DNA of 20,000 nucleotides from an uncultured virus (IMG/VR IMGVR_UViG_3300002125_000001). Lineage: Duplodnaviria; Heunggongvirae; Uroviricota; Caudoviricetes. A program made the translations under genes and the position numbers. The stretch lies in the IMG/VR virus record IMGVR_UViG_3300002125_000001. The stretch is one strand, 5' to 3'. This document shows, in pieces, positions 961 to 18,107 of the stretch; the stretch's first letter is position 1; each line of letters starts with the position of its first letter. Below the pieces are notes generated by a model that ran no database searches, had not been told where the DNA came from, and saw nothing but the letters and a program-made list of their open reading frames with translations.

Positions 961-1323
961 CTATTTTTTCCGTTTCAATGCCTCGCGCACTTGGCTATCC
1001 TGTTCGTCGGCGATTTCGTAGGCAACGGTATCGTTCGCGTTGTGCGCATCCCGCAGCTGAATCCTAAAAAAATTGACGAGTTTATTCAAATCATCAACGC
1101 TATAGGCGGCGTACTCTTTGATGTTTTGTTCTCTTTCGCTTACCAATTTCTTCAGGTCCTCGGAACCGACGGCACCCTGAAAACTAAGCGTCCAGTCCAA
1201 TTTTCCTTTTGGTTCCCGCATCGAGGGTAGCGGACCAACCGGGACGGGCATCGCCGCGTTAAATGAGGCATTAGCGCATTGTTGCAAATGCTCAAACTGT
1301 GATATGTCTGCCAATTTTTTCAT
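961..1323 (-). CDS. Leader-family protein (MKKLADISQFEHLQ...ASFN), unknown helical C-terminus
   Basis: N-terminal LADISxFExLQ motif shared with nine other ORFs; later LSFQ motif. Confidence 0.8.
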   Translation of the reverse strand: MKKLADISQFEHLQQCANASFNAAMPVPVGPLPSMREPKGKLDWTLSFQGAVGSEDLKKLVSEREQNIKEYAAYSVDDLNKLVNFFRIQLRDAHNANDTVAYEIADEQDSQVREALKRKK

Positions 1324-1353
1324 TGTGATTCCACTAAAAATTACGCACGTCCG

Positions 1354-1788
1354 TCATATAACAAATGAATCTTGGCTGTCGTTCCAATGCCGCCTATCAA
1401 TATAATTTACGGATAATTCCAAACCTGCGATAGTACAAACAAAGTGGTGTCCGCAATGATCCGTATGCGTATCCCAATGATAACCAAGCGATATTAAATC
1501 ATCAACCAGGGCCATTTCAAATTCCAACAATTTGTGTTTTGGTCGTCGCCATAGTTTAGAAAGTAGCACAAAACCTGGATTTCCACGTCGTCCCAACGCG
1601 GCATAGTATAGCCCTTTAGTTAGCCAACATATAGGATTTAATTTGTTCAAAACATACGGCAATTTGAAATTGAATTCTAAACCGTAGTCTAAAACCACAA
1701 ATCGAAAAAACAAACCTAAAAACGCCAACTTAATTGCGACGTTAATCACGCTATGCCTACTGTACCACCATTCTTTTAAACTGTCCAT
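1354..1788 (-). CDS. Hypothetical protein with N-terminal hydrophobic segment, no leader
   Basis: ATG at 1788 lies 1 nt after the TAG of 1790..2227 (TAG-A-ATG coupling). Hydrophobic stretch INVAIKLAFLGLFFRFVVL; AT-rich. Confidence 0.6.
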   Translation of the reverse strand: MDSLKEWWYSRHSVINVAIKLAFLGLFFRFVVLDYGLEFNFKLPYVLNKLNPICWLTKGLYYAALGRRGNPGFVLLSKLWRRPKHKLLEFEMALVDDLISLGYHWDTHTDHCGHHFVCTIAGLELSVNYIDRRHWNDSQDSFVI

Positions 1789-1789
1789 T

Positions 1790-2227
1790 CTAATCCTCTC
1801 GTAACAGCTGTTGCCTTGCCTGCTCATCTTGCCAATCTTTTACAAAACCATTTCTGTTCTTTTTAATGTGTTTTTTGATGTCGCTTACAATAGGGGCAGG
1901 TATGCCATTATTTTCGGCCAACTCGACAACGGCCTGACCATTGTATTCAAGCCAAAATTTTGCTTTTCCTTCCGGCGTATAGACGTGAACGTGCATAGGT
2001 TCTGTTCTGCCGCCATGCTGTTCTTCGTCAACGTAAACAGAAAATGAAAAACCACGAAATGGCGGCGTATTCTTTGATTTGGGCGACATATTGCCGACAA
2101 CGGCACTTTGAAATGCACCTGACAACTTGGAAACTGCCGCACCATCATTAAACATGGACATTTCGCTTCGAGGCATATCCCAGTTCCCCAACGATTCAAA
2201 CATTGATATATCAGCCAACCTTTCCAT
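1790..2227 (-). CDS. Leader-family protein fused to a DUF4160-like domain
   Basis: Leader MERLADISMFESLG...MSMFN...GAFQ. The C-terminal GFSFSVY...EPMHVHVY...KAKFWL...VELAENNG...IKKN..GFVKDW matches the DUF4160 pattern. Confidence 0.75.
   Translation of the reverse strand: MERLADISMFESLGNWDMPRSEMSMFNDGAAVSKLSGAFQSAVVGNMSPKSKNTPPFRGFSFSVYVDEEQHGGRTEPMHVHVYTPEGKAKFWLEYNGQAVVELAENNGIPAPIVSDIKKHIKKNRNGFVKDWQDEQARQQLLRED
2147..2227. repeat. 81-bp leader-coding repeat, copy 1 (pairs with 2960..3040)
   Basis: Manual alignment: 76/81 nt identical to 2960..3040. Confidence 0.9.
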
Positions 2228-2259
2228 TATTCTATCTTTCTTCGTGATTCGGCGAGTTG

Positions 2260-2643
2260 TTACTCTTGGAGATACCTACGATTCCATGATTCGCATATAC
2301 GTCTTAGAGATTCTTTGAAATCTTCTTCATCGTCTTCCGCATACCATGTTACTGTTTGCATACCGCATTCTGGATTGCTGCAACTAGCGTATAATCCATG
2401 AGGATTTATTGTAAATTCCACGCCGTAAGTGCCATCTTCTTTTTTCACGCTTCGTCCACCATTTTTTCCGGGATAAAAGGCGTATTCAATACGAGGCTTT
2501 TCCTGCCCACAATTTGCGCACGGTAACAATGAAACCTCAAACGGTTCTATTAACGCTAGAATTTCGGCTTCATTTTCCAACATGCAGGCATAAAAACAAG
2601 CGGCAGAACCGGGCTTGAATTCTGGGGTCAATTTACTATTCAC
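2260..2643 (-). CDS. Lar-like (restriction alleviation family) zinc-finger protein, paralog 1
   Basis: LLPCANCG ... CSNPECG ... ESWNRR matches the Lar-family LxPCPFCG...CxxC...AWNxR signature. GTG start overlaps the end of the upstream gene. Confidence 0.65.
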   Translation of the reverse strand: MNSKLTPEFKPGSAACFYACMLENEAEILALIEPFEVSLLPCANCGQEKPRIEYAFYPGKNGGRSVKKEDGTYGVEFTINPHGLYASCSNPECGMQTVTWYAEDDEEDFKESLRRICESWNRRYLQE

Positions 2644-3040
2644 AGCTCACCTCTTCATTTTCAAATTTTACCAAACCTTCTATACTGTCGCCCCAAGTAG
2701 AACCGGAACGAACGCGGTTTATGTATTGTAACGCCTCTGCCCGGTCCGTAAAAGGCGATCCTTGTACAACAAATGAATCTTCCATCGGGTTATCTGGGTT
2801 TGTCGCAATTATATCCAAACCTTTGCCTTCCGGATTTTTTCGTAACGAAAATTTATACTGTTTTCCGGTCATCTTGCTTTTAGGCTTACTAAAATTTGGC
2901 GACATACTATCTACGATGGCATCTTGAAAAATCTCCGACAGGCGAGCAACCGCACCACTATTAAACATGGACATTTCGCTTCGAGGCATATCCTCGCTCC
3001 CCAACGATTCAAACATTGATATATCTGCCAACTTTTCCAT
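2636..3040 (-). CDS. Leader-family protein (MEKLADISMFESLG...MSMFN...EIFQ), unknown C-terminal domain
   Basis: Start refined to the ATG at 3040 by alignment with the other leaders; the track start is 3052. Confidence 0.8.
   Translation of the reverse strand: MEKLADISMFESLGSEDMPRSEMSMFNSGAVARLSEIFQDAIVDSMSPNFSKPKSKMTGKQYKFSLRKNPEGKGLDIIATNPDNPMEDSFVVQGSPFTDRAEALQYINRVRSGSTWGDSIEGLVKFENEEVSCE
2960..3040. repeat. 81-bp leader-coding repeat, copy 2
   Basis: 76/81 nt identical to 2147..2227. Confidence 0.9.
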
Positions 3041-3078
3041 AGCAGTATGCAAAAAAAGAAAAAATACTGATCAAAATT

Positions 3079-3609
3079 TTATTTCAATCCGGCCCGCACA
3101 TTGTTGTCCATATCTTCAATATCGTTTTTGAATGTTTCGTATGCCGCATCGAGGTCTTTGTCGCCGTTCTGCAATTGATCGAAAATTCTGTATTGTTTAT
3201 CCGCCTCTTGCGACAACTTGGTATGCGAGTGCAAAAACGTACCCAACGAATCCAACATCCCCTGCTCGCCCTGGGCTACTTTTGCCAGTGTCTGTATCTC
3301 TTTTTTCGGTATACTGGGAAACTGTTTGACGACTGATTTAAGCGTCCGTTTACCCCCGTTCAATTCACGCAGGGCCGAATAGACCTTTTTGAATTCGGGT
3401 CCCGTCACGCCCCGGCTCTCAAACTGTCCCATAAACGCCTCTTTTTGCGCCCGGAAATCATCGCCCGCCTGTGCCGCCTCGTAATGGAACGGCTTTACTT
3501 TTTCAACGAACCCGTCCGATAATTGCGAGTTGAAACACGACATGGGCGACATCATGCGTTGATTCGCGTGTGCCTGCAACGATTCAAATTGTGAAATATC
3601 TGCCTGCAT
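3079..3609 (-). CDS. Leader-family protein (MQADISQFESLQ...MMSPMSCFN), helical C-terminus
   Basis: Leader motif; 176 aa ORF tightly packed in the minus-strand operon. Confidence 0.8.
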   Translation of the reverse strand: MQADISQFESLQAHANQRMMSPMSCFNSQLSDGFVEKVKPFHYEAAQAGDDFRAQKEAFMGQFESRGVTGPEFKKVYSALRELNGGKRTLKSVVKQFPSIPKKEIQTLAKVAQGEQGMLDSLGTFLHSHTKLSQEADKQYRIFDQLQNGDKDLDAAYETFKNDIEDMDNNVRAGLK

Positions 3610-3613
3610 TGTC

Positions 3614-4132
3614 TTACTTTTGTTGTGCGTAGTATTGCATCGCTTCCTCTTTGGTAGCGAATTTTGGCATTTCTTTTTTCGGTTGCGCCGTCCCGCCGGG
3701 CAATTCTACGGGTTTGAAAGCGTCGCCGCCCAACAGGTACGTATTGCCCAAAAACGACTTGGCTATCGCCGCCTGTTTTTTCATCAAGCGGTCATGCGCT
3801 TTCGGATCGTCTTTAACCTGTTCGCCTTCCTGTCGTATCTCGCGGCTAACTTCGCCGACCCCGGCTTTCATAGTATCGACCGCGTTATCGATTTCCGGGC
3901 GGATCGATTTGTATGTTTGCTGCGCCTGCCGCACTTCCTGCTCGTTTCGGGAATGCCAAATATCCTGCTGCGTTTCGTAGACTCCGCGCAAACCGCCTTT
4001 CAATATCTCATAGGCGCGGTCCATCGATTGGAGCGTCTGGTCCAATTCGGGCGAATTGAAGCATGACATAGCAGATACCCCGCCACGTGGCGGGGTATCC
4101 AATAATTCGTTAAATGAATTTACAACTCGCAT
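3614..4132 (-). CDS. Divergent leader-family protein (MRVVNSFNELL...AMSCFN), coiled-coil rich
   Basis: ATG at 4132 is 2 nt after the TAA of the upstream gene; the track extension to 4324 overlaps that gene. AMSCFNS matches PMSCFNS of 3079..3609. Confidence 0.75.
   Translation of the reverse strand: MRVVNSFNELLDTPPRGGVSAMSCFNSPELDQTLQSMDRAYEILKGGLRGVYETQQDIWHSRNEQEVRQAQQTYKSIRPEIDNAVDTMKAGVGEVSREIRQEGEQVKDDPKAHDRLMKKQAAIAKSFLGNTYLLGGDAFKPVELPGGTAQPKKEMPKFATKEEAMQYYAQQK
4074..4099. repeat. Perfect 26-bp palindrome GATACCCCGCCACGTGGCGGGGTATC
   Basis: Self-complementary by inspection; the 16-bp core recurs within 11268..11287. Confidence 0.9.
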
Positions 4133-4134
4133 GG

Positions 4135-4482
4135 TTATCTTTGGGCTATTGCCTGTTCTATCCGATCCAAACGAGTATTTGTATCGCTTTGCAACCGGAG
4201 TAGTTTTGCATCTACGTTTGCAAAACCGTTCTTTGTGGTGATTTCCAAATTGTCCATTCGGCTTTCTAATTTTCCAAACCGTTCGTCTATTTTTCCAAAT
4301 CGCTCGTCCACCTGCTTCCTCCACTCAACCAATGGAAGATTACTCTGTATAGGCGTAGCTGAACTTATGGGACTTATGCCACTCGGCGCATTTTGCACAG
4401 GATTAAACGCCCCCAAACCGGAAACAGGGGCACCCACGGCTCCCAACGATTCAAACATACCAATATCAGCGAGCTTTTCCAT
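4135..4482 (-). CDS. Leader-family protein (MEKLADIGMFESLG...LGAFN) with heptad coiled coil, paralog 1
   Basis: Start refined to 4482. Heptads VDERFGK IDERFGK LESRMDN; full-length paralog at 6102..6446. Confidence 0.8.
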   Translation of the reverse strand: MEKLADIGMFESLGAVGAPVSGLGAFNPVQNAPSGISPISSATPIQSNLPLVEWRKQVDERFGKIDERFGKLESRMDNLEITTKNGFANVDAKLLRLQSDTNTRLDRIEQAIAQR

Positions 4483-4487: not shown

Positions 4488-4910
4488 TCACTTTCGTAAA
4501 AGTTGTTCCCGGTACGCTTGGTAGCTTTCGGGCGTTAGGTTCAGGTAACGGAGCATTTCCTGCGAAGGCGTCTCCGTTTTTCTAATCGCATCCTGTACTT
4601 GCAACATCCCCTTTTCGCGTGAGGCTCGTTCGGCGCCCCAATCGTCATACGGATCATCCTGCCGGTCCCCGGCGGCGTCGCCCGTAGCGAAATCGGGGTA
4701 GACCCGCTTGATCGTTTTGGCTACATCGCGTGGGTGCATCCGACCCCCGTCGTCCAAATAAGAGAGCATATCGGGCAGGGTAGTGCCCTGGAACGCGGCG
4801 TTTACGCTCACGGCGCGCAGGCTACGGTCATCAAACGTAAACATAGCGGGTATGCCAAATGCCGCGTTCTGTTGCGTCTGTAGCTGCGAAAATAGTGGGA
4901 TACTGTCCAT
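4488..4910 (-). CDS. Leader-family protein, MDSIPLFSQLQ subtype, unknown C-terminus
   Basis: First 41 aa identical to 5366..5728; the remainder is unrelated. Confidence 0.8.
   Translation of the reverse strand: MDSIPLFSQLQTQQNAAFGIPAMFTFDDRSLRAVSVNAAFQGTTLPDMLSYLDDGGRMHPRDVAKTIKRVYPDFATGDAAGDRQDDPYDDWGAERASREKGMLQVQDAIRKTETPSQEMLRYLNLTPESYQAYREQLLRK
4789..4910. repeat. 122-bp leader-coding repeat, copy 1 (pairs with 5607..5728)
   Basis: 114/122 nt identical by manual alignment; 4789..4871 is an 83-bp perfect match. Confidence 0.92.
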
Positions 4911-4948: not shown

Positions 4949-5347
4949 CTACTTACCTGTCCTTTTATTCCATGCGCTGCAGACGCGCCTTAACGCTTCT
5001 ACAAAATCGTCTTCGGTATCTTCGGCATTCCACACTCTTGTTTGGATTCGGCAATCTTCAATATCTGAGGGCGGATCAGTAGCAGCATTTCGGCAACACA
5101 CAACATACAACTCATGCGGGCATTCCTTCATGGGGATTTCGCCGTTTGGTTGCAGCTGAGTTGGGAACATATTACCGGGGCGGTACATGTAATGTACATG
5201 CGGACGATCATTTCCGCAATGCGCACAGGGCAGCAAGGTGGCATCAGCCTCGTTAATGAGGGTAGCTATTTCGGACTCGTTTTCAAGCTCGTACAAAAAA
5301 CAACGAGTACGGCCATCACAATTGCCTGTTTTTAGTTTTGTATTCAT
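4949..5347 (-). CDS. Lar-like zinc-finger protein, paralog 2
   Basis: LLPCAHCG ... AWNKR. Shares LENExEI, LLPCAxCG, QTxxWxAED and LRRxCxxWNxR with 2260..2643. GAGGTG Shine-Dalgarno-like sequence upstream. Confidence 0.65.
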   Translation of the reverse strand: MNTKLKTGNCDGRTRCFLYELENESEIATLINEADATLLPCAHCGNDRPHVHYMYRPGNMFPTQLQPNGEIPMKECPHELYVVCCRNAATDPPSDIEDCRIQTRVWNAEDTEDDFVEALRRVCSAWNKRTGK

Positions 5348-5365: not shown

Positions 5366-5728
5366 CTAAAATAAGTACCCCCACTTATCAAACTTATGCG
5401 TATTTTTGAACGCGATTGCTTCTTGAGCCGTTATATTATCCATATCTTCGATATACGCTGTTTGTTTGCCGCCATCGGGGTCTGAAACGGCAATCCCACA
5501 CCTGTCCGTTCCTTGAACAGGGTGTAGCGAAAAAACGTAATGTCTGTCTGGACGCAATTCTGATAAAGAGATTAAGCCGCTCGGAAAGTTTTCTACGGAA
5601 ACGTCTTGGAACGCGGCGTTTACGCTCACGGCGCGCAGGCTACGGTCATCAAACGTAAACATAGCGGGTATGCCAAATGCCGCGTTCTGCTGCGTCTGCA
5701 ACTGCGAAAAAAGAGGGATAGAATCCAT
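5366..5728 (-). CDS. Leader-family protein, MDSIPLFSQLQ subtype
   Basis: 41-aa leader identical to 4488..4910; AAGGA upstream; C-terminal domain resembles that of 2636..3040. Confidence 0.8.
   Translation of the reverse strand: MDSIPLFSQLQTQQNAAFGIPAMFTFDDRSLRAVSVNAAFQDVSVENFPSGLISLSELRPDRHYVFSLHPVQGTDRCGIAVSDPDGGKQTAYIEDMDNITAQEAIAFKNTHKFDKWGYLF
5607..5728. repeat. 122-bp leader-coding repeat, copy 2
   Basis: 114/122 nt identical to 4789..4910. Confidence 0.92.
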
Positions 5729-6101: not shown

Positions 6102-6446
6102 CTATCTTTGCATAAGAGCTTGTTTGATACTTGCCACATCCTGCTCCAAACGATCAAATCGCGTATTTGTGTCGTTATGCAACCGTTCTATTTTTGCGTC
6201 TACGTTTGCGAAACCGTTCTTTGTAGCAATTTCCAAATTATCAATTCGGGCTTCAAGGCCATCGACCCGCTTGCTCAAATTCTGGCCCCATTGTGGCATA
6301 GGAAGGTTACCCTGGACGGACGCGGGGGAACCGACGGGGTTCACGCCCGGCGCGTTCTCAATCGTATTGAACGCGCCCAAATTCGACAATCCGACGTTTC
6401 CGGTTCCAAGCGATTCAAACATCCCAATATCTGCGAGTTTTTCCAT
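6102..6446 (-). CDS. Leader-family coiled-coil protein, paralog 2 of 4135..4482
   Basis: Shares MEKLADIGMFESLG, LGAFN, NLP..W and DNLEI.TKNGFANVDAK..RL..DTNTR.DR.EQ with paralog 1. Confidence 0.8.
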   Translation of the reverse strand: MEKLADIGMFESLGTGNVGLSNLGAFNTIENAPGVNPVGSPASVQGNLPMPQWGQNLSKRVDGLEARIDNLEIATKNGFANVDAKIERLHNDTNTRFDRLEQDVASIKQALMQR

Positions 6447-6475: not shown

Positions 6476-6868
6476 CTATTGTGGCAATTCGTCGGGCGAG
6501 CCGCTACCAAAACTAGGCGAGCCGATAAGGGCTGGCGGGCCGCCTGAGGGGACGCTCGGCGTGTCTGAGGACTGGTCATTCCCCATACCGCCTTTTTGCA
6601 GGTCGGCCACGGCGGTCCGCGTACCACGCATACCAGCATCCAATCTATTATTCAACTCGTCAAGAACCCCCTCAAGTTTCGCTTGTTCGGCCTCGGCCTC
6701 GGCGTCCGCCCGGAGCCTGCGAAGCGAATCAATTTGCGTCATCCAACTTTCGACGCTTGTTTTAATATCCTCAACAGTCGCGTTAAACACGGACATGGGC
6801 GACATCATGCGCCGGTTCGCGCTCGATTGGAGATTCTCAAACATTGAAATATCGGCAAGTTTTTCCAT
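6476..6868 (-). CDS. Leader-family protein (MEKLADISMFENLQ...MMSPMSVFN), coiled coil plus S/G/P-rich tail
   Basis: Leader motif; GAGG upstream of the ATG. Confidence 0.8.
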   Translation of the reverse strand: MEKLADISMFENLQSSANRRMMSPMSVFNATVEDIKTSVESWMTQIDSLRRLRADAEAEAEQAKLEGVLDELNNRLDAGMRGTRTAVADLQKGGMGNDQSSDTPSVPSGGPPALIGSPSFGSGSPDELPQ

Positions 6869-7106: not shown

Positions 7107-7901
7107 TCAATAGTCGCTGGCCGCCTCGAACCTGGCCTTTTCTTTTTCAAACTTAGCTTGATATTCTGCTAACTCTTGCCTCGCTTTTTCAATATATTCG
7201 GATTCAGAAACAGGGTCTTTTGAATAGGGAAACCGCCGCTCCAACTGCGCTAATTTCATCTCAGCCTGTTCAAACCGATCTTGGGCATCAAACATCCAAC
7301 GTCGTAATGCTGGCGTGTTTTGGGAATCTTCCCATTTCTTTATCTCGTCAAATTTTGGGATTGTGCGCTTTATATCGTCAAGCTGCTCTTTAATGACAGA
7401 TGGGCGTTCGTCATAGTCACGTTCGTTTCCTTTTTCATCGTATTTATCGGGGTTTCCCGTGGCAATCCTTTTCGCCCGCTCCAATTTGTCGCTTTCGCTT
7501 TCTGTTATTTGCCGCTGCGGTCGATCATCCTCTATCGGCAACTTTTTTTGGACCGGCTGTTGGTCAATTTCGGCCAACAATTGCTGAGCTTTCGCCTGCG
7601 TGTCTTTGCCGACACGACGGCGGGTAGTTGCGACAGCATCAAAAAACTGACGAGCGACTTCTCTATCTCGTTCGTCCCAGCTACCAATTACGTCCGCCAA
7701 CGTATCCGGCAACTCCAATTGGTTTTGGTCCAACGGACCACTTTCATCTCTTAGCTCGTTTAATTTTTCTTGATAATATGCGGCACGGGCGCCGTTAAAC
7801 GTATGTTTGTAGTTAAACACGCTCATCTGCGACATGCCCATCGCGTTGTGTGCGCCGGATTGAAGGTTCTCAAACACAGAAAGGTCTGCTAGTTTTTGCA
7901 T
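7107..7901 (-). CDS. Leader-family protein (MQKLADLSVFENLQ...MSQMSVFN), charged helical C-terminus
   Basis: Leader motif; 264 aa, E/K/D/R-rich; directly downstream of the protease gene. Confidence 0.8.
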   Translation of the reverse strand: MQKLADLSVFENLQSGAHNAMGMSQMSVFNYKHTFNGARAAYYQEKLNELRDESGPLDQNQLELPDTLADVIGSWDERDREVARQFFDAVATTRRRVGKDTQAKAQQLLAEIDQQPVQKKLPIEDDRPQRQITESESDKLERAKRIATGNPDKYDEKGNERDYDERPSVIKEQLDDIKRTIPKFDEIKKWEDSQNTPALRRWMFDAQDRFEQAEMKLAQLERRFPYSKDPVSESEYIEKARQELAEYQAKFEKEKARFEAASDY

Positions 7902-8024: not shown

Positions 8025-9719
8025 TTAAGCCGCCATTTTGAATTCATCGCCATCTTCTTCCAAACGCGACGCTTCGTCGGCGACGATAAGTTTCTTCAAT
8101 TCCGGCGACATGTCCAACAAAAACGGGTACCGGGACGCCAGCGAATGGAGCTGCGCAAGGTAGACACGTTTCATATCGTCCGACGATTCGCCCAGGTACA
8201 TCGCCATAGCGTTCCGCGTCTCGGCGAATACCTCGTTCATCGCCTTCGTAAACGCGGTATCTACGCTTTTTCCGCTTATCGCGTCCGCCCCGTCATCGGT
8301 AGTTGACTGGGCGATCCGCGTAGCATCGGGCAACGAATCGGCTTTGGAATCCCCGTACTTTTTAATATGGGACAACACGGCGGCCTGCGCCGCCTTCAAT
8401 TCCACGTCAAGGTTTTCCAACTCACGCAAGTCGGCGGGATCGAGCGGTTTCTTAGCCTTGAGCAATTTTGCGTTCTTTTCCTCCAACTCCGCGATCCGTG
8501 TCCGAATGTCTACTGCAATAGCACGCAACCGCTTGCGCTCCGCATTCTTTTTTTCAACCTCTTCACTATCGAACGAACCCTTCGGTCGCCCGGTCGAGGC
8601 CGACTCCCACAACCCGTCCTCAGTCTGCCGGAACTTAAACCCGCCACGCGCGTCGTTCAGAAGGTTCAGAATCAACGCCTCATTGAATGAGGTAACGAGT
8701 ACCTGTGCCGCGTTTCTTAATTTCTTAACCGTACTTACGAACAGGTCTTCACCCTCTTCCAAATCGTCGGAGGCCACGATTTCGGGGTTATCCTGCATCT
8801 CCTCACGAGCGGGCACCTCCTCAAGAACAATTTCGGGCGTGTCCGGCATAGCTTCGGACAAACTTGCCACTTTCGCGGGACCTGTCGGCGGCTCAATTGT
8901 GATTTTGTAACCCTCGGCTGTTGTAAACGATTGCACGCCGGGCATGACCGGGCCCGCGCCCATTGATTCCAAAGGCGGCGCGACGGCTACTTTTATTTCT
9001 GTATGCGCCGTGCCGTGCGCATTCGCGTTTTTCGCATCGGTGTGTCCCTGTTCTTCTCTAAAAAGTCGTGTAGATTCCATAACCGGCGACCCCGCAAGAT
9101 AATCATTGTTGATGTACGTAGTAATGATATTCAACGTTTCTCCCGCTTTCATTTCTTTTCGTTCGTTAATGAGCAACCCGGCCCCATCCGATAGGCTACA
9201 AGCGCCCTGTTTACGGGGCAGGATAGCGAGATGGTCGGCCCGGATGTTGATGATACGCCCGATATACGGTTCGCTATTCCATACGCCCTCATCCATGATG
9301 AGTTCGGAGAACAGACCGGTCGATATTTCCATCGGGAGCCGGTGTTTGATATGCTCAAGCAGGGTAGGGCACTTCTCCTCGGCCTTGCGTCTATCGATCC
9401 ACGCTTCGGCCTTGAGCTTACCGTCCACAAAATGCGTATTCATAATCATCCCGACCGCCTGCCGCTTGTAGACTTCGAGATCGGTCGCCGTATCGCCCCG
9501 GAACGGATGTTCGATTACGACGGGCTTGAAATTCCACATTTTGGGCGTTTTTGCCAACTCTTCGGTATCGTAATAAACGGGCCCCTGCGAGCCGGTATGG
9601 ACCCCTTCGAGGATCATCGTCATCGGGGCGACGACGTATTCACGGTCGTCAAGCGTTTCGTACCGAACCGTCGGGTCGATAGTTACGTTCCAAATGGTTT
9701 CTATTTTGTTGCGTGGCAT
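8025..9719 (-). CDS. DUF2213-type putative prohead maturation protease with C-terminal scaffold-like coiled coil
   Basis: N-terminal domain with WNFKPVVIEHP, EISTGLF and DHLAILP..GACSLSDGAG, typical of DUF2213-like phage head proteins; followed by an acidic linker and coiled coil. Confidence 0.8.
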   Translation of the reverse strand: MPRNKIETIWNVTIDPTVRYETLDDREYVVAPMTMILEGVHTGSQGPVYYDTEELAKTPKMWNFKPVVIEHPFRGDTATDLEVYKRQAVGMIMNTHFVDGKLKAEAWIDRRKAEEKCPTLLEHIKHRLPMEISTGLFSELIMDEGVWNSEPYIGRIINIRADHLAILPRKQGACSLSDGAGLLINERKEMKAGETLNIITTYINNDYLAGSPVMESTRLFREEQGHTDAKNANAHGTAHTEIKVAVAPPLESMGAGPVMPGVQSFTTAEGYKITIEPPTGPAKVASLSEAMPDTPEIVLEEVPAREEMQDNPEIVASDDLEEGEDLFVSTVKKLRNAAQVLVTSFNEALILNLLNDARGGFKFRQTEDGLWESASTGRPKGSFDSEEVEKKNAERKRLRAIAVDIRTRIAELEEKNAKLLKAKKPLDPADLRELENLDVELKAAQAAVLSHIKKYGDSKADSLPDATRIAQSTTDDGADAISGKSVDTAFTKAMNEVFAETRNAMAMYLGESSDDMKRVYLAQLHSLASRYPFLLDMSPELKKLIVADEASRLEEDGDEFKMAA

Positions 9720-10167: not shown

Positions 10168-10197
10168 AGTATACCAAATTTTCAGCTACCGTGTAAA
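10168..10197 (-). promoter_or_regulatory. Sigma70-like promoter, leftward
   Basis: Minus strand TTTACA (10197-10192), 18-nt spacer ending TGG, then TATACT (10173-10168); extended -10. Confidence 0.65.
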
Positions 10198-10290
10198 AAA
10201 CGCGCACTAGAGAATTTTTTTAGCACATTTACCAAAAATATGCCAAAATACACAAGAACAACCATCGAAGTTTACCAAAAATGCGCCGCT

Positions 10291-10320
10291 TTTACACGGA
10301 ACGAATTTTTATGATATAAT
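10291..10320 (+). promoter_or_regulatory. Sigma70-like promoter, rightward
   Basis: TTTACA (10291-10296), 18-nt spacer ending TGA, then TATAAT (10315-10320). GGAG SD and ATG at 10363 downstream. Confidence 0.7.
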
Positions 10321-10362: not shown

Positions 10363-10896
10363 ATGTTTGCTGATATATCCGTTTTTGAGAATTTACAGCG
10401 GGGCGCACACAGCGCTATGGGTCTGTCACATATCGCCGTTTTCAACGGGTTCGTTGACGACGAGGCGAAGCGAAGAGCCGAATGGTGCGACGCCGAAATC
10501 GGTAAAATGAAACAAGAAATAACTGAAATACGCGATGAGCTGCTAAAAGCGCACAATAGCTACAATTTTCAACAGTATTTAATGGAACGTGGCGAAAGCG
10601 ATAAATCACGAAAGGAAGAGTTGACAAGAAAAATAGAATACCTTGACGAACGAAACAAGCAACTACAGGCGACGGACACAGATGGAAAATTTGTTACCGT
10701 ATGTGCAGGAATTGAATCGTGCCTTGAGGACTTTCAAACACAAATTAGCAGGGCAATAGACAACCCGGCGCGACCAATACCACCAAAAAGACCACCAGGA
10801 CAATTACCAAAACGCCCTCCTCAAGGATTTCATAATTCTACGCATGGCACGCCACTCTGTTTAGGGCTCTCCGTGTTTAATAAACCTTCCGAATAG
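10363..10896 (+). CDS. Leader-family protein on the opposite strand (MFADISVFENLQRGAHSAMGLSHIAVFN), coiled coil plus Pro-rich tail
   Basis: Leader closest to that of 7107..7901; has its own promoter and SD. Confidence 0.8.
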   Translation: MFADISVFENLQRGAHSAMGLSHIAVFNGFVDDEAKRRAEWCDAEIGKMKQEITEIRDELLKAHNSYNFQQYLMERGESDKSRKEELTRKIEYLDERNKQLQATDTDGKFVTVCAGIESCLEDFQTQISRAIDNPARPIPPKRPPGQLPKRPPQGFHNSTHGTPLCLGLSVFNKPSE

Positions 10897-11174
10897 GCTA
10901 TACGGTGCATGGAAAAAAATACGCGGCACATACTATCCGAGTAGCAATTTAATAACTGCTCAGGGGAGAACCACGGATAAAATTCTGAAGCCTCGGCTCT
11001 AAAAATATAATTGATAAGCATATCTACCCTATACCCGTTATGTATGTCAAGACGCACATTTTCACAATCCAAATCTTCCTGTAGCGCCTTTTTCCATTTG
11101 TACCGTTGCTCGGCCCTAGAACGTGGGCCAACCTTTGGAATCTCAGCCAATACCTTATCCAGTTGTGAACCCAT
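10830..11174 (-). CDS. Hypothetical protein
   Basis: Likely start ATG at 11174 (MGSQLDKVLAEIP...); 3' end overlaps 10363..10896 convergently. Confidence 0.5.
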   Translation of the reverse strand: MGSQLDKVLAEIPKVGPRSRAEQRYKWKKALQEDLDCENVRLDIHNGYRVDMLINYIFRAEASEFYPWFSPEQLLNCYSDSMCRVFFSMHRIAYSEGLLNTESPKQSGVPCVEL

Positions 11175-11267: not shown

Positions 11268-11287
11268 ATCCCGCCACGTGGCGGGAT
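11268..11287. repeat. Perfect 20-bp palindrome ATCCCGCCACGTGGCGGGAT
   Basis: Self-complementary; same CCCGCCACGTGGCGGG core as 4074..4099. Confidence 0.9.
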
Positions 11288-11857: not shown

Positions 11858-13032
11858 GCGGCCCTCCGCTTTTTCATTAAAATTTTGTACTTTTCGTAGG
11901 CGTCCGATTTCGTGGGCGAAAACGAAAGCCCCTTGCACCAATAGTCGTTCCGCAACAGCGCCCGGCATATCCGACGCCAGCTGGGTTTACGATCCGAAAC
12001 GGCATTTTCTTGTTTAAGCGGCAACTCATCGGGTATCTCCGCGTACCCGCGATCTCGCCACCATTTCAAAAACACAGCAATTTTGTTCTCGTAATGTTCG
12101 CAAAGATGGCCCGGCATGGAATCGAGCAGCAACCGTGCGAACGCCTGCCACGTGATGCCCGCCGGTTTGGAAACCTTTATATTACCCAATATATTGCCCG
12201 ACGTTTGCGAATAGAGCGAGCCCGCGTTCGCACCGTTTACGCGGGCAACGACGCGGGCCCATGTCTCCGGCTCGATCCGGTGGAACAGCCACAAACCTTT
12301 CCGCTGATCGTCGCCGTAAGGCTGACAAATCCGCATCTGATGTATCGAAAGGCCCGCCTTGTGCATCAGATCGTACAACAGGTTATAGGGCAGCCGCGTC
12401 TTACCGAAAAAAGTCCATATATCTTCCGTTTTCCAATCGAAGATCGGGTACGCATTGTAGACGCCGCCCGGCATACGGGTCGTCCACGCCTTATTTGCGA
12501 ACCGTTCTTTGCTCTCGCTCCAAATGGTACGCCGCCGGTTCAAACTCTCCGCCATCCGGATACCGACAAGGCAACACGTAGAAACGCCGCCACCGTACCA
12601 TACGCCAAACTGCGGCACAAACTCTTCAAACTCCATCCCGTACCGGAAAAAGGGGAAGTCGGCACCCGTCTTCACTGGATAATTGGGCAACGGGCGTACC
12701 CAATCTTTTTCACGACCCGGCTCCCAACAAATCCAACGCGGCTCAAACTGTGAAACGGCGTTACGCAAAAGGATAGGAAGCGTACACCAAAAAGGCTCGA
12801 TATGCTCCGCGTACAAAGAAAACAGCTCGGAAACATGCGCAATCGTATGCGCGTACTGGGCCTCCAAATCAATAAAGAACAAGCCGACTTTTCGACCGCG
12901 ACGGGCCGCTTCTGCCAACGCAAGATGCGTCATCACCGACGAATCCTTCCCGCCCGAGAAAGATACGCAAACGCGGTCAAAACTATCGAAGCAAAACGCG
13001 ATCCGCTCTTGGGCGGCTTCAAGCACATTCAT
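11845..13032 (-). CDS. ibrA: IbrA/YbdN-like PAPS reductase family protein with DUF3440
   Basis: SFSGGKDS PP-loop, VGIR.AESLNR, YPIFDWKTEDIW, MRICQPYGDDQRKGLWL and PSWRRIC..LLRNDYWC. Confidence 0.9.
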   Translation of the reverse strand: MNVLEAAQERIAFCFDSFDRVCVSFSGGKDSSVMTHLALAEAARRGRKVGLFFIDLEAQYAHTIAHVSELFSLYAEHIEPFWCTLPILLRNAVSQFEPRWICWEPGREKDWVRPLPNYPVKTGADFPFFRYGMEFEEFVPQFGVWYGGGVSTCCLVGIRMAESLNRRRTIWSESKERFANKAWTTRMPGGVYNAYPIFDWKTEDIWTFFGKTRLPYNLLYDLMHKAGLSIHQMRICQPYGDDQRKGLWLFHRIEPETWARVVARVNGANAGSLYSQTSGNILGNIKVSKPAGITWQAFARLLLDSMPGHLCEHYENKIAVFLKWWRDRGYAEIPDELPLKQENAVSDRKPSWRRICRALLRNDYWCKGLSFSPTKSDAYEKYKILMKKRRAAWGL

Positions 13033-14570
13033 TTTACAATGCGGTACAACAGCGGGTCAAATTCGGTGTGTTTCTTCTGTATACGCAAAATATCGTCATC
13101 TTCAATCCAAACGGCGGCGTTGAGTTTCTTTTTTGCAGCCGTCATCCCGTTTTTATCATGCGGGTTCGATCCCGGCTTCACCTCGTACAACGTGCCAGTC
13201 CGCTCGTCAAGGAAATCGGGGAACCAACGGCGGCAAACGCCATCATCGGTAACGTAGCCGATAAAAACATTGTCCGACCGGTAAAGCCGCTTCAAATGCG
13301 GGTTATCGTAATGGAAAAGCAACTCCCACGACGAATCGTAATGAACGCCGTCGCGGACGTACTTCGCCGAACACAGCGGGCATTTCGTCTTACTATAGTA
13401 TAGCTGGCTAGGCTTCACTGTCCAGATTTGGTTATGCCGCCCGCACAAAAAAGTAGTACGGCGCGTAAAACCGTCCCATTCTCCGTGCAACGAAATCTGC
13501 ACATCATAGCCCGCCAGCCACTCCAAAAACGCCTCTTTCGGCCACGGGACCAACCCGGCGCATTTCGGGCATCCGTTGGGTTTGCAACCTTTTTTGCCGA
13601 TAATAACGCTTCTTGCAGACGTTGTCCATTCGTATCCGTCTATTCGGCACCTAAACCGTGCGGGCTTCCTTAAAAACTGAAAATCGCCGACCAGCTCTAT
13701 ATTGGGGTTCACGACGGCCAGTTTCGCCACAAACATCTCTTCCGTCCAACGCTCTTGACGCGAACAACGCGGACAGCATTTATCACGCGGTCTCGCGGCC
13801 ACAAAATTACACGGCTTAGCCGACCATCGACCATCCGCCCCGTACCCGCACACGTTGCACCGAACGGCAATCCGAGTCGTTATATTGACAAACGGGGACA
13901 TACGGACGATATGCGGGAAACGTTTCGCCATCAGCGCATCAAACGATTCCTGCGTGTACCGCTCCCGTTTGGAACAACGCGGGCACCCAAACCCATTCAA
14001 AACATCGGCAAGATGCGGATGCCATTCATAGCCACAGCCATCTACCAAACAACGAAAATGCGTTTTTTCTTTTTTCTTTGTGAAACCGCCGACCATCTCC
14101 AACAAACGACCCTGTTCTCGGAGCTGCGCATTCACTTTCTCAGGCCCCCAATCGTCGCCGAGCATCGTAGCCACCCGCTTCTTTGAACGGCGGGCCGACT
14201 CCTCCTTGTCTTTCAACAGATGGGCTACGCCGTACCGCTTCAAATGGGTAGCTCGGGACGACTCGACAACCGCAGAAACGTCTTTTTCAACGCCCAACTC
14301 TAACAACCTCATCCCAACCGCACGACGACAACAGCCATAAAATTCGGCAATCTCCTCTTGCGTCTTATTCTCCACCAAATAAAGACGACACAACTCCTCT
14401 TTCGTCGCCTGCGCTACCCGGGACGACTCTTTTTTTATGCCGTATTTCCTGCAATAATTATTGACTGTCTGCAAGCTACACCCAAGACGCCTCGCAACCT
14501 CTTCCTTCACAAGGTCCTGGACAATGTATAAATCAACCAGCTGCTCTTTAGAAAAACCTAACGATCTCAT
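13029..14570 (-). CDS. Putative free-standing (homing-type) endonuclease: two HTH repeats, four zinc-ribbon repeats, C-terminal PD-(D/E)XK domain
   Basis: LY...xEExA...GC twice at the N-terminus; repeated C..xGYEW...GCPRC/CPKC/CPLC units; C-terminal DSSWE...FPDF...YEVKP (TnsA-N-like). Confidence 0.7.
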   Translation of the reverse strand: MRSLGFSKEQLVDLYIVQDLVKEEVARRLGCSLQTVNNYCRKYGIKKESSRVAQATKEELCRLYLVENKTQEEIAEFYGCCRRAVGMRLLELGVEKDVSAVVESSRATHLKRYGVAHLLKDKEESARRSKKRVATMLGDDWGPEKVNAQLREQGRLLEMVGGFTKKKEKTHFRCLVDGCGYEWHPHLADVLNGFGCPRCSKRERYTQESFDALMAKRFPHIVRMSPFVNITTRIAVRCNVCGYGADGRWSAKPCNFVAARPRDKCCPRCSRQERWTEEMFVAKLAVVNPNIELVGDFQFLRKPARFRCRIDGYEWTTSARSVIIGKKGCKPNGCPKCAGLVPWPKEAFLEWLAGYDVQISLHGEWDGFTRRTTFLCGRHNQIWTVKPSQLYYSKTKCPLCSAKYVRDGVHYDSSWELLFHYDNPHLKRLYRSDNVFIGYVTDDGVCRRWFPDFLDERTGTLYEVKPGSNPHDKNGMTAAKKKLNAAVWIEDDDILRIQKKHTEFDPLLYRIVK

Positions 14571-14713: not shown

Positions 14714-15865
14714 CTAAATAACGGGCTTCGGCGCAGACAATCTCGCGTGCAAGATACCTGCCCTTCCGTAAAAGTCCGATTTAAGACGAGGCAACAAAAT
14801 GCAGATTACCTTGAAGTGGATTTCAAATCCTCCTTCTGTTTGCCACTGGACGGTGGTGATATCCATACCGGTAACGGCTTGGATGGTATTCTGGTCGAGT
14901 TCGATCATGACGAAAGTTCCGTAGGGTAGGAACTCGGAGCAATTGATCGACTTGATTTCTTTGATCTTTTCCAACCGTTCTCGGAGCGTAATAGTGCTCG
15001 TTTGCCCGGCGGTATGATCGTTATAATCATCGTCGAGGATTTGGTCAAAATCGGGGCTATGGTAGATAGCGAACGGTCCGTAGTGCCGGATGTCGTGCAG
15101 GTTCCGTCGAGCGTCGAGGATTTGCCTGTAGAGGATAGCTGGCGACCAATCGGGATCGCGTGATCCATCGACCCTTGCCCAGTTGGTAAAGACTTTTGTA
15201 AGTCTTTGCGGGTAGTTGCACACGCCGTAGACGTTTCCGCCTCCGAACTGGAAATCGGGTTCGACGCCGAGCGCGAGTCTTTCGACTTTTTCGGCGACCA
15301 TCCGGGACGCCATACCTGCGGTGGTTACGTCGATGGGCATATTGGAGTTCCGGGAGACGGCGATTTGCCGTGCGCTGAAGCTGAAATCCTTGTGGATGAT
15401 CGGCAACGGCATCTGATCCATGTCGTACATGGGCCGGTCCGCGTCCCCTTTGCGAAGCCCGTCCATACTGACGGTTGCGCCGGTGATATTGGATTGCCGT
15501 TCGTACTGCCACACGGTTTTCCCTAGCGCGTTTGGCAGGTTGACGTTAAGCCCGGCGGCTCGTAGGTCGTTGAAGAACCGGAGTCGTGGCATTGCTGCGG
15601 CGACGACGGTTTCGTCGATCATAACCCAGTCATCCTTTCGGAGCGTAGCTGCGTTTGTGGTCTGCACGTTTTTGAGAACGGGCTTCCCGTCTTTCCAACC
15701 GATTTGTTGCGAGATGAGCGAGGTATGCCCGTCATCGTGCAGGAACGGTCGGATGCAGCGGGGGTCGAAGTTGTAGGTAAGCAACCGGGTGGCAACGTCG
15801 CCGGACCCGCCGATTAGACTTGCGCCGTTCGTAATAGAAACGGGCATCGCGTTCAGATTTTGCAT
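14714..15865 (-). CDS. Major capsid protein (HK97 fold, encapsulin/Linocin M18-like)
   Basis: 383 aa with NAATLRKDDW..ID..V..AA..RL, PLPIIHKDFSFSARQI, VYGVCNYP and FKVICILLPRLK. AAAGGA SD upstream and a strong terminator downstream. Confidence 0.85.
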   Translation of the reverse strand: MQNLNAMPVSITNGASLIGGSGDVATRLLTYNFDPRCIRPFLHDDGHTSLISQQIGWKDGKPVLKNVQTTNAATLRKDDWVMIDETVVAAAMPRLRFFNDLRAAGLNVNLPNALGKTVWQYERQSNITGATVSMDGLRKGDADRPMYDMDQMPLPIIHKDFSFSARQIAVSRNSNMPIDVTTAGMASRMVAEKVERLALGVEPDFQFGGGNVYGVCNYPQRLTKVFTNWARVDGSRDPDWSPAILYRQILDARRNLHDIRHYGPFAIYHSPDFDQILDDDYNDHTAGQTSTITLRERLEKIKEIKSINCSEFLPYGTFVMIELDQNTIQAVTGMDITTVQWQTEGGFEIHFKVICILLPRLKSDFYGRAGILHARLSAPKPVI

Positions 15866-16046: not shown

Positions 16047-16265
16047 GTGGCAATGTACGAAACGATTATTTGCGAGCAGGCCAAAAAAATACTAGAGTAT
16101 ATGGCTCTTGAATCATTAGTGGTTTATTGTTGTGGTCATCCTGACAGGCTGTACACGGAACTACGTCATTTGGACAACTTGTCGGGTTGCAACCGTCATA
16201 TTGACGATTACGACATCCCGCAATTGATCGCGGCGTTCAAACGAACGGTACGTTCAAGTGCGTAA
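16047..16265 (+). CDS. Small hypothetical protein
   Basis: 72-aa ORF only; overlaps 16208..16462 convergently. Confidence 0.3.
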   Translation: MAMYETIICEQAKKILEYMALESLVVYCCGHPDRLYTELRHLDNLSGCNRHIDDYDIPQLIAAFKRTVRSSA

Positions 16266-16462
16266 CTGGCCTGATCGTTGTACAAATCCAATGTTTGTTT
16301 GAATTCTTGTTGCAACCTTTCGGCTGCTTGGTACAATTCTTCGTGGGACAATTCTTTCCCTTTTAGGTCGTCGATTTTCTGTTTGTAATCGTCGAGGAGC
16401 GGGATCATCTCGCCCGCGTAATACGGTTGTACGTATTCAAAAACTGGAGTAGTTGCGGGCAT
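16208..16462 (-). CDS. Small helical hypothetical protein
   Basis: 84 aa with natural amphipathic composition; ATG start. Confidence 0.55.
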   Translation of the reverse strand: MPATTPVFEYVQPYYAGEMIPLLDDYKQKIDDLKGKELSHEELYQAAERLQQEFKQTLDLYNDQASYALERTVRLNAAINCGMS

Positions 16463-16592
16463 GGGTTTGTTTTCTTGTCGTATACACCAGTTTTTGCGGC
16501 ATATTTGATAGTAGCCTTTTCCTGCCTGTTTCCCGATTCGATTTTTGGTAGAATCAAACGTTGTTTTATTGATTTTCTATTTTGTTTTTCCG

Positions 16593-16958
16593 ATGCGTCC
16601 TAAAATACACGAGGCGATGTTTCCCGAAAAAAAACCGGAAAGGACCGGTCCACGCCGGACACAATCGGAAATCGAGTTTTATAGGCAGCGGCACATGCCC
16701 GACAGTATCAAACGCGATATTTCGCATATTGGTTTGATTGACAAAGCATTAGTTGATATTAAGCAGGGGACATTCGAGTACCCTGAAAAAAAGTTGTTCG
16801 ACGACCGCTACAAAACAATTGATTATCTATTTGGACAACTATTGGATTTCGATTCTGAACCGCATGGCCATCCCGAATTCGCAGACTACATGGAGTACCT
16901 TGAAACGCCCGGATGGACTCCTTACCGACGCCCAAAAAGGAAACGCAACAAAAAGTGA
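16593..16958 (+). CDS. Hypothetical protein
   Basis: Likely ATG at 16593 (MRPKIHEAMFPEKK...); basic C-terminus; stop abuts the stop of 16960..17391. Confidence 0.6.
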   Translation: MRPKIHEAMFPEKKPERTGPRRTQSEIEFYRQRHMPDSIKRDISHIGLIDKALVDIKQGTFEYPEKKLFDDRYKTIDYLFGQLLDFDSEPHGHPEFADYMEYLETPGWTPYRRPKRKRNKK

Positions 16959-16959
16959 A

Positions 16960-17391
16960 CTATTCTTGTATTTCTCTTTTTTTATGGCCTTTTGATTTTT
17001 CTTTAGCACCGTACCAAAGTGGCGGTCCGTATGTTAGCGCATCTTCAAACGTATCCTCATAGCCCATTTTGTTGCCATCCAAATCTCTTCCCAACGCGAT
17101 GCGCCCGAGTGCTTCTCCTTGTTTTTGTATATTTCTTTCTACGCCTTCCTCTATTTTCTTTTGCAATTCTGCGTTTACATCCTGTGCTTTCGCAAGCAAT
17201 TTGGTTCTTTCTTTTTGGCTTGTTTCTCTATTAGCCGCCTCGGACAAACCTTCATATTTTCGTTCTAAAGGCTGTTCGCTTTGCGACCCGAAATTATCTG
17301 CGAACACGCTCATGGGCGACCGCGTGGCCATTTGTTGGTTAGCTGTCGCCTGTAAATTTTCAAAAACTGAAATATCTGCGAGTTTTTGCAT
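16960..17391 (-). CDS. Leader-family protein (MQKLADISVFENLQ...SPMSVFADN)
   Basis: Leader motif; directly downstream of the head-closure-like gene. Confidence 0.8.
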   Translation of the reverse strand: MQKLADISVFENLQATANQQMATRSPMSVFADNFGSQSEQPLERKYEGLSEAANRETSQKERTKLLAKAQDVNAELQKKIEEGVERNIQKQGEALGRIALGRDLDGNKMGYEDTFEDALTYGPPLWYGAKEKSKGHKKREIQE

Positions 17392-17403
17392 CGTTTATTT
17401 CGA

Positions 17404-17799
17404 TCAAATCTGGCATTGGATCACGACCCTTTCGGACATGAAATCTGGCGGGTACTGTTTCTGTTCCCAACCGAGTTCTGCTATTGTCGATTGTGATACG
17501 ATCCGTTTTGCGTTTTTCAACAAATTCGGATTTGCCTTTTCATCGGGCGTTAGCCCCTGTAGCGTCTCTTCGGTTCCCAGCATCACGAAACTCCCGACGA
17601 CGAGCACGCGGTCGGGGAACACCGTGTTTTGTTTTGCGTTTGTTTGTACGGTGTCGTCTTTTTGTATCTCTTCGGTTACGGTATCCCACCGGCATTTGAT
17701 AACGACCGGTTCGGTGAATATATCCTCGAACTGTTCGTCAACGCCGGTAAGTTTCCAATAGATACAATCGTCGGTCAGTGTAAGGTAATAAACAAACAT
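17404..17799 (-). CDS. Head-closure / head-tail joining-like protein
   Basis: CIYW..TG.D....F.EPVVIKCRWD pattern typical of phage head-closure and minor capsid proteins; ATG at 17799. Confidence 0.6.
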   Translation of the reverse strand: MFVYYLTLTDDCIYWKLTGVDEQFEDIFTEPVVIKCRWDTVTEEIQKDDTVQTNAKQNTVFPDRVLVVGSFVMLGTEETLQGLTPDEKANPNLLKNAKRIVSQSTIAELGWEQKQYPPDFMSERVVIQCQI

Positions 17800-17834
17800 C
17801 ACAATCAACAACTGCGCCGCTACTTTCTAATTCC

Positions 17835-18107
17835 CTACTTGAAATACAAATGGTCCTTACGGCTATCTTCGGACACGGTGTACAACCCGTTATCCTCGAT
17901 CAATTCGTCTTGTCTCTTGGCCAGCGCGTTATAGTCGGGCCACCGGGTCGATTCTCGCAACGCGCCCGAAACGGCGTCCAGTTCGCATAAACTACACGAA
18001 TCGCCCTTGTTTGCGTTGTATACATCCTGGAAGGAACTCATGGCATTTACACTGGTCCCTCCCACGAACGTATCGAAAAAATTAGTAATTGGTTGTCTAT
18101 CGTTCAT
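17835..18107 (-). CDS. Small protein with divergent leader-like N-terminus (ITNFFDTF...SVNAMSSFQDV)
   Basis: AMSSF resembles AMSCF/PMSVF; SVNA...FQDV resembles SVNAAFQDV of 5366..5728. Confidence 0.6.
   Translation of the reverse strand: MNDRQPITNFFDTFVGGTSVNAMSSFQDVYNANKGDSCSLCELDAVSGALRESTRWPDYNALAKRQDELIEDNGLYTVSEDSRKDHLYFK

Follow-up and report, generated by a model that had tools for sequence, protein, structure and literature searches.

A conserved N-terminal leader on variable bodies in an uncultured tailed phage: a probable address tag for loading proteins into the head

The analyzed window is a stretch of 20,000 nucleotides from an uncultured tailed virus (IMG/VR record IMGVR_UViG_3300002125_000001), located at G000:C1:77160–97159 of this 167,820-bp single-contig record (48% GC). 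It carries a family of 14 open reading frames (ORFs) in which a conserved N-terminal leader is followed by variable C-terminal parts (bodies). Also encoded in the window are a DUF2213 head-maturation protease, a DUF6260 major capsid protein, and, judging by gene position only, probably a tail-tube protein. The single sequencing run in which the stretch was detected is listed as a termite gut metagenome, possibly the source of the phage. The portal, Mu-F, replication, and tail genes of this phage lie elsewhere in the genome; the head module is split, with the scaffold and portal 14–30 kb outside the window. Judging from sequence, the leader is probably a cleavable address tag that loads small proteins into the phage head and works like the capsid-targeting sequence (CTS) of phage T4.

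Leader genes and bodies of the window

All 14 ORFs named in the initial annotation are present with the ends it gave, and all carry the leader:

7107..7901, minus strand: leader (LADLS...MSVFN) and charged, helical body of 264 aa; first of the genes behind the protease
6476..6868, minus strand: leader (LADIS...MSVFN) and coiled-coil body, 130 aa; body cluster of four
6102..6446, minus strand: leader (LADIG...LGAFN, then I-E-N) and coiled-coil body, 114 aa; 4135 paralogue
5366..5728, minus strand: SIPLF-variant leader; body common to the gene at genome 73199 (SFNEL leader; 41%) and, weakly, to 2636
4488..4910, minus strand: SIPLF-variant leader, DNA near-identical to the 5366 leader as far as the AAFQ codons; body unrelated
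4135..4482, minus strand: leader (LADIG...LGAFN, then V-Q-N) and coiled-coil body, 115 aa
3614..4132, minus strand: SFNEL-variant leader (start re-placed to 4132) and 172-aa helical body
3079..3609, minus strand: leader (ADIS...MSCFN) and 176-aa body
2636..3040, minus strand: leader (LADIS...MSMFN) and small alpha/beta body; Lar-like gene next
1790..2227, minus strand: leader (LADIS...MSMFN) and DUF4160 body (E=1.5e-10; DhiT toxin domain family)
961..1323, minus strand: shortened leader (LADIS...ASFN) and 120-aa body
10363..10896, plus strand: leader (FADIS...IAVFN) and coiled-coil body that has a second L-S-V-F-N close to its C-terminus
16960..17391, minus strand: leader (LADIS...MSVFADN) and 143-aa body
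17835..18107, minus strand: divergent leader (ITNFFD...AMSSFQ, then V-Y-N) and short body; weakest member (HMM E=3.6; pattern match)

Twelve of the 14 begin with a LADIS- or SIPLF-type start, as initially described, and the degenerate DNA pattern for A-D-I-S-x-F-E-x-L-Q has 8 matches in the window against 0.00 expected (200 shuffles). The ORF at 3614, first listed as divergent, most likely starts at ATG 4132, not at GTG 4324 inside the neighbour gene; its motif is then N-terminal and represents a second variant, x-S-F-N-E-L...M-S-x-F-[NQ]. The FN-like motif closing the leader varies more than first reported: the 961 leader ends with A-S-F-N at residue 22, the 16960 leader with V-F-A-D-N, while the 4488 and 5366 leaders end with F-T-F-D, followed by S-V-N-A-A-F-Q.

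The 10363 gene is on the plus strand, and the other 13 leader genes are on the minus strand. The proposed placement behind the prohead protease is seen for 11 of the 14, which form a block downstream of it. Similarly, in a 5.2-Mb bin (G001), all leaders reside on one 171,649-bp phage contig (C529), with 14 copies, several of them directly behind the protease, and a capsid 73% identical to that of this phage. The bodies are mostly unrelated, as claimed, except for the 4135/6102 paralogues (52%) and a weak alignment between 2636 and 5366.

The leader as a conserved peptide module

A hidden Markov model (HMM) trained on 20 leader copies of this genome retrieves 21 N-terminal copies at iE<=1.3e-11 (the scores of seed members being circular), whereas the best hit in the reversed-ORF control has E=0.31. 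The whole genome contains 21 LADIS/SIPLF copies, 8 SFNEL-type or divergent copies, and 2 broken ones (116912, 37367), i.e., about 29 intact copies in three interchangeable variants; the SFNEL-type profile aligns to the LADIS-type profile (hhalign probability 70, E=4e-5). Genes outside the window were called with a simple codon model, and some are missed or mis-started (e.g., 87522, 94550, 98754). In one of the broken copies (G000:C1:116912–117324), the leader is split over two frames: the helix half stops, and the M-A-A-F-N half is in another frame.

Searching 1.84 billion representative proteins with a profile of 19 leaders yields 339 leader proteins (E<=1e-3), of which the best 150 were inspected; with 97 proteins from a second search and the leader genes from the loci, 258 distinct leader proteins were compared, and the leader was parsed in 256 of them. 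The leader is almost always N-terminal: the motif starts within 12 residues (<=12) of the N-terminus in 247/256 proteins, and the median end of the leader is residue 31. The proteins are 42–265 aa long (n=256), and none exceeds 265 aa, though proteins of up to 2000 aa were searched. The leader also lacks a hydrophobic h-region, as had been noted: the median best 10-residue hydropathy is 1.09, and a membrane-like stretch occurs in 1/256 proteins, so it does not resemble a Sec or membrane signal peptide. A conserved gene (G000:C1:70251–70925, or L004, and L109:5741–6448) has an internal leader (A-D-L/I-S-x-F-E...A-x-F-N) behind a hydrophobic N-terminal stretch; its product could tether proheads to the membrane, or the gene could be mis-started.

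The claim that the peptide rather than the DNA is conserved is borne out by codon usage. At identical residues, codon positions 1/2/3 agree in 0.91/1.00/0.48 of 1104 comparisons among 20 copies, leader Ser is encoded by both TCN and AGY, and the peptide is retained across genomes of 36–56% GC. Free third positions, fixed second positions, and this retention leave little room for an explanation by which the common 5' end is only a DNA cassette, serving as a translation start and a recombination handle, with a functionless peptide. Such a cassette would fit two genes with near-identical leader DNA, and promoter/palindrome cassettes duplicated around the genome; still, we regard it as extremely improbable. 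The two genes, 4488 and 5366, have common leader DNA and diverge right after the leader, evidently as a result of a recent leader/body swap. The HigB-like body (see below) and the DUF4160 body are each found behind both LADIS and SFNEL leaders, and in one protein (P0004) two tandem leaders precede an ECF sigma factor. The 10363 gene is one of four paralogous cassettes in the genome, here accompanied by the following elements:

10312..10320, plus strand: extended -10-like element upstream of the plus-strand leader gene, without the box described below
11269..11286, no strand: 18-nt palindrome closing the 10363 cassette, terminator-like

The palindrome has 18 copies genome-wide, mostly intergenic; it is also found inside the leader codons of the 4132 gene (approximately 4078–4095) and truncates the relic leader gene at genome 37367. 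A joint between 10221 and 11264 in sequencing reads was considered as a cassette-less variant and rejected, as the inserted nucleotides trace back to the paralogous locus at genome 25717 (repeat artefact).

The bodies of 249 leader proteins fall into 143 BLAST clusters, 97 of them singletons, and most are charged and unannotated; Pfam convincingly names only one of the best 150 of the 339 proteins, the ECF sigma factor P0004. The suggestion that the bodies are effectors stands in part. Some are toxin- or sigma-factor-like, while no body has a named match to an anti-defence family in the Pfam, NCBIfam, and PHROG scans (PADLOC not searched). DUF4160 is the domain found in DhiT, a protein described as inhibiting the growth of both E. 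coli and Dickeya when overproduced (PMC8198452, PMC12065111). One family of four bodies has matches to GraT/HigB in PDB (E=0.0012–0.03) and to RelE/HigB-type clusters in Atlas (0.93–0.94); since the body folded poorly (pLDDT 44.7, with HigB first in the fold search at E=0.47), the assignment rests on the PDB and Atlas matches. The Atlas search for the 2636 body gave sub-threshold leads only. In the phage genome, a ribosomal protein S6-like domain (L002:7812–8237, E=3e-13) and a Tad2-like anti-Thoeris domain (L002:15106–15495, E=9e-8) are encoded without a leader.

Three body families have a homologous neighbour: the 10363 type (convergent), the 2636/5366 type (Lar-like, downstream; a Lar-like Cys-rich gene directly follows the 5366 leader gene), and one type in other genomes. 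For the first two, co-duplication could explain the retention of the neighbour. In the window, the genes concerned are:

4949..5347, minus strand: Cys-rich gene, 2260–2643 paralogue; possible cognate partner of the 5366 body
2260..2643, minus strand: Cys-rich gene with a weak Lar restriction-alleviation match (E=0.003, below cut-off); possible partner
10830..11174, minus strand: convergent gene whose homologues likewise converge on the three cassettes paralogous to 10363; possible cognate partner

A general toxin–immunity pairing was rejected, as most leader genes are without a conserved neighbour and several convergent neighbours are of defence type (GmrSD, HIRAN, HNH); the latter adjoin leader genes in related contigs (L151:3948–5063, L160:8409–10088, L165:906–1577, L162:2456–3970).

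End motif, prohead protease, and promoter

The head genes that bear on the end of the leader are, in the window:

8025..9719, minus strand: DUF2213 prohead protease (residues 1–190, gp21/assemblin fold) with a long C-terminal extension (Pfam E=1.3e-7, PHROG 530 E=2.9e-9)
14714..15865, minus strand: major capsid protein (DUF6260); predicted propeptide ends with T-T-N71 before A-A-T-L-R-K-D

The AlphaFold model of the protease domain (pLDDT 88.6) has T4 gp21 as its top match (prob 1.00, TM 0.50, E=1e-3), followed by herpesvirus proteases. Asn closes this domain, and family-wide, Asn follows the last G-x-G of the protease domain in 33/35 rows. In distant relatives the protease is fused to a scaffold, of which two genes at genome 110001–111785 are split homologues here. 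The scaffold gene (110703–111785) contains 14 [VIL]-x-N-[ADGSE] motifs against 1.5 expected (p=1e-9), the top value among 224 proteins (next p=0.009), and six scaffolds from three genomes contain 71 V/I-x-N against 19 expected. Val or Ile occupies P3 of 314/1179 scaffold Asn residues (27%; 55 distant protease–scaffold fusions), compared with 49/531 (9%) for mature capsids (n=47) and 14.5% for other ORFs (n=364). The capsid N-termini themselves show x-N before the conserved A-T-L-R-K-D in many alignment rows. Since V-x-N fills the scaffold, and T4 gp21 is described as cutting scaffolds into many fragments (PMC9026906), we infer that V-x-N is the site of the DUF2213 protease, with the cut after Asn and Val/Ile at P3. 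The scaffold N-terminus was considered as a leader variant and not accepted (2.7 bits, E=1.4).

The leader, likewise, has Asn at P1 in 234/249 cases, Val at P3 in 123/144, and Ala, Asp, Ser, or Gly at P1' in 99/143. The end of the leader looks like a cut site for the protease that matures this phage's head, V-x-N being common to the scaffold and the end of the protease domain. Leaders without the terminal Asn show V/I-x-N within the next 14 residues in 11/15 cases, compared with 54/234 of those with Asn (p=1e-4, which overstates independence because four of the 15 belong to one family and three are probably mis-anchored, and to that extent counts against the tag); this is suggestive of a compensating downstream site. 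More generally, V/I-x-N is four times as dense in the stretch of 14 residues following the leader as in the remainder of the bodies (41/2029 vs. 74/14681). The open-access literature covered by our search contains no description of this leader or of DUF2213 specificity and no test of Asn specificity; the Hardycor1 paper has no passage on the protease or scaffold.

A protease site could also serve a different end. The leader might be a safety catch, holding a toxic or regulatory body inactive until the late protease cuts it in the cytoplasm, so that host shut-off or lysis is timed without packaging. The HigB-like, DUF4160, and sigma-factor bodies, and the protease motif itself, agree with this; yet inhibition of 143 unrelated body clusters by a single peptide of 30 residues is unlikely, and T4-type proteases of the gp21 fold are described as maturing proheads (PMC9026906), although for the protease studied here action inside the prohead only is presumed. 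We therefore rate the safety catch as quite improbable. Less probable again is loading into the tail tube or another virion compartment instead of the head: the small size and helical bodies would suit a lumen, and several copies are in tail operons, but the end motif matches the head scaffold, and tail proteins are not enriched for V-x-N.

The protease and leader genes of the window are preceded by a common control element:

10168..10217, minus strand: promoter-like element ahead of the protease/leader operon, made up of a 16-nt box, a spacer of about 25 nt, and an extended -10

The box with the extended -10 has 8 genome copies at <=1 mismatch and none in five shuffles. All eight precede the scaffold operon, the protease/leader operon, the leader–tail tube–capsid operon, two structural operons, or three stand-alone leader genes (one of them a relic), which indicates that leader genes are under control common to virion genes. 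This promoter presumably acts late, although its -10 part alone equals the plain sigma-70 extended -10 consensus.

Within the leader motif, Phe at P2 (96%) is more conserved than Asn (90%), whereas P2 of the scaffold sites is variable. As this exceeds the need of a cut site, the motif may do more than specify the cut, and the Phe argues for a binding role, in the head or elsewhere. If elsewhere, the leader might be read by a cytoplasmic partner (RNA polymerase of the host, Clp protease or adaptor, chaperone, or phage regulator) as a motif for docking or degradation; the proteins would then act in the infected cell without ever being packaged, with the V-F-N likeness to the scaffold motif incidental. 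The existence of C-terminal and internal leader copies, and extended -10 elements before many stand-alone copies, are consistent with such docking; it leaves unexplained the compensating V-x-N, the box common to the scaffold and protease operons, and the clustering behind the protease in two genomes. Together with the distribution considered below, this makes a cytoplasmic docking motif unlikely, if less so than the safety catch.

Distribution, mechanism, and known systems

The host of the phage is likely a planctomycete, since relatives are found in bins named Planctomycetaceae and a single contig (L204/L205) joins phage tail genes with host-like genes. The leader is found in 1/201 genomes of the order of G001 and in 8/251 of its family; that it is absent from the 200 other genomes of the order and from 243/251 of the family is hard to reconcile with docking to a cytoplasmic partner, for which the copies in host-like DNA would speak. 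This order/family scan yielded four new leader contigs, two phage-like and two host-like (L207, L208), with host genes on contigs of the latter type recognised by eye. The pattern scan of GTDB gave 27 loci, of which 7 are true, all with homologues of this phage's genes, and 20 are due to chance. In IMG/VR, five pattern-scan loci were rejected as chance matches, a further pattern scan gave one locus (on the same contig as L098), and an SFNEL alignment scan gave none. One leader used in tblastn has no match in INPHARED phages or PLSDB plasmids, and the leader has no match among PDB sequences (best E=7).

The leader gene on L207 (5075–5335) is a lone one on an 81-kb contig; its short body has no NCBIfam match and, presumably, resembles the C-terminal part of RelB/Phd-type antitoxins. 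One two-gene leader pair with a common upstream element recurs beside a transposase-like ORF or host-like genes in L097, L102, L112, and L096, and is possibly a mobile cassette outside the phage.

Our preferred explanation, the address tag, may be set out as follows. The leader would be a bipartite propeptide directing small accessory proteins to the prohead during its assembly. The amphipathic helix that forms its first half (L-A-D-I-S-x-F-E-x-L-Q or a variant) and the second Phe would dock on a head-assembly component (scaffold core, coat, or protease); the V-F-N end would then be cut by the DUF2213 prohead protease, and the freed body would stay in the head, probably until its ejection into a new host. 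A small domain of any kind would become cargo once joined to the end of the leader, and the phage could therefore sample many bodies by recombination at that point. Packaging, cleavage, ejection, protease specificity, late expression, and body activities are all proposed here on the strength of genome comparison. The initial claim of capsid targeting draws support from the N-terminal, non-hydrophobic peptide module, the protease-type end motif, the head-operon box, and the clustering behind the protease in two genomes, while the leader turns out not to be general to the capsid type: there are 0 matches in 80 IMG/VR loci (1.1 Mb) around capsid relatives 35–47% identical. Because none is seen around these distant relatives, the leader evidently marks a sub-lineage, not the whole capsid type. 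Nor is it confined to phages of this type, as the initial annotation had expected, since the two host-like contigs also carry it.

These limits of distribution weigh against the address tag, and so do several other observations. The bodies have a median net charge of 0, with 48% net basic, whereas T4 bodies are basic; V-x-N is a short, common motif; one conserved gene has its leader behind a predicted membrane anchor; and the motif is repeated near the C-terminus in 4/258 proteins, three of which end with F-Q-stop and are uncleavable. The sigma-70-like -10 of the boxed promoter could fire early, the box was not found in the other loci examined, and a stand-alone copy at genome 158724 has a canonical -35/-10 instead of the box and lacks V-F-N. 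Thirty different cargoes per head would exceed the four of T4. Just 11/24 other metagenome loci with a leader have a non-leader homologue of this phage; of the remaining 13, 11 are shorter than 3.3 kb, and in two (L096, L102) the neighbouring genes are host-like or mobile. Finally, leader genes are carried by the host-like contigs L207 (81 kb) and L208, and no capsid or protease of this type was detected in their bins, which are incomplete.

Further features of the genome are an HNH/zinc-finger endonuclease-like gene immediately downstream of the capsid gene (window 13029–14570); a PAPS-reductase/DUF3440 and ParB-like gene pair, possibly for DNA modification, also present in G001:C529 (window 11303–13032); and intein or homing-endonuclease domains in the clamp-loader, DNA polymerase A, and a 1046-aa gene (L007, genome 139423–151377).

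If the address tag is real, it would mark at least 339 proteins, with more than 140 unannotated body clusters, as candidate injected effectors for anti-defence or host-takeover screens. Its end motif offers a testable specificity of the DUF2213 prohead protease (after Asn, Val/Ile at P3), and the leader is a possible new loading tag for protein cages. To our knowledge, experimental proof of peptide-addressed head cargo comes mainly from T4-like phages.

Among known systems, family 1 encapsulins are apparently related through the shell. The capsid profile has family 1 encapsulin shells as its 13 best PDB matches (best E=4e-13), followed by the sole phage capsid (E=1e-5); against the NCBIfam encapsulin cut-off it scores 31.4 of 100 bits, far below, and the phage family may be close to the encapsulin root. 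Encapsulins of this family are described as loading cargo by short peptides of about 10 residues, almost always C-terminal (PMC11664910). In both cases, terminal short peptides would load cargo into a shell of the HK97 fold; here the tag is N-terminal (C-terminal copies in 4/258 proteins), longer, and apparently cleaved, and the carrier is a tailed phage with portal and terminase-like genes. A consensus pattern for encapsulin cargo peptides has 0 matches among the proteins compared, and complex prediction for the capsid protein with the leader (score 0.01) speaks neither for nor against binding. A bolder variant, which we find doubtful, is that the leader mimics, in tandem, the tail by which the scaffold binds the coat, so that an encapsulin-like peptide grip would load dozens of interchangeable effectors, to be cleaved at Asn, with mRNA-cutting toxins and a sigma factor injected. 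The I-S-x-F, M-S-x-F, and C-terminal copies echo the P-S-T-[FW] scaffold tail of the lineage, and scaffolds of distant relatives without detected leaders mostly end with P-x-[MLI]-N-F; against this, the distant scaffolds L062 and L085 also end with P-S-T (by eye), and the likeness spans only three residues. On such mimicry, some injected toxins would be guarded by convergent partner genes, and the host-like leader copies could reflect a host borrowing the tag.

MuF polymorphic toxins, as described in PMC12226406, similarly combine a constant N-terminal part with a variable C-terminal effector and a link to head genes, and some bodies here keep a possibly cognate neighbour. Here, however, a peptide of 30 residues takes the place of the constant MuF part, the Mu-F gene of the genome stands separately, a consistent partner is lacking for most bodies, and the MuF domain has no match in the best 150 of the 339 leader proteins. 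Comparable, too, are head ejection proteins of the SPN3US/phiKZ type, whose N-terminal propeptides (two of them 20–24 residues long) are removed by the prohead protease at a P3–P1 motif; in the account of PMC10052503, though, these propeptides are not one common motif on dozens of unrelated genes, and the motif is A-X-E.

The T4 CTS is the nearest parallel. It is reported as the only element conserved among otherwise diverse defence proteins (PMC3012670), with 10–19 residues, the targeting ones first and the processing ones last (PMC9026906). Like the CTS of IPI, IPII, and IPIII, the leader would be a short conserved N-terminal propeptide on diverse small bodies, in a phage with a gp21-fold protease, with the same predicted layout (targeting first, protease site last) and a proposed arms-race role. 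It differs in being about 30 residues long; in a predicted cut after Asn, while T4-type proteases such as SPN3US gp245 cut after Glu (PMC10052503); in the absence of T4-type head genes, with an encapsulin-related coat and a DUF2213 protease instead; in having about 29 genes, which are dispersed over both strands and have promoters of their own; and in bodies that are neutral on average and include toxin-like and sigma-factor ones, with extra C-terminal and tandem leader copies. Because length, P1 residue, head genes, and charge all differ, the leader is, to judge by these features, not a member of the T4 CTS family; rather, if the address tag holds, a phage lineage with an unrelated, encapsulin-like coat would have reached the solution of T4 at a much larger scale, with about 29 genes per genome.

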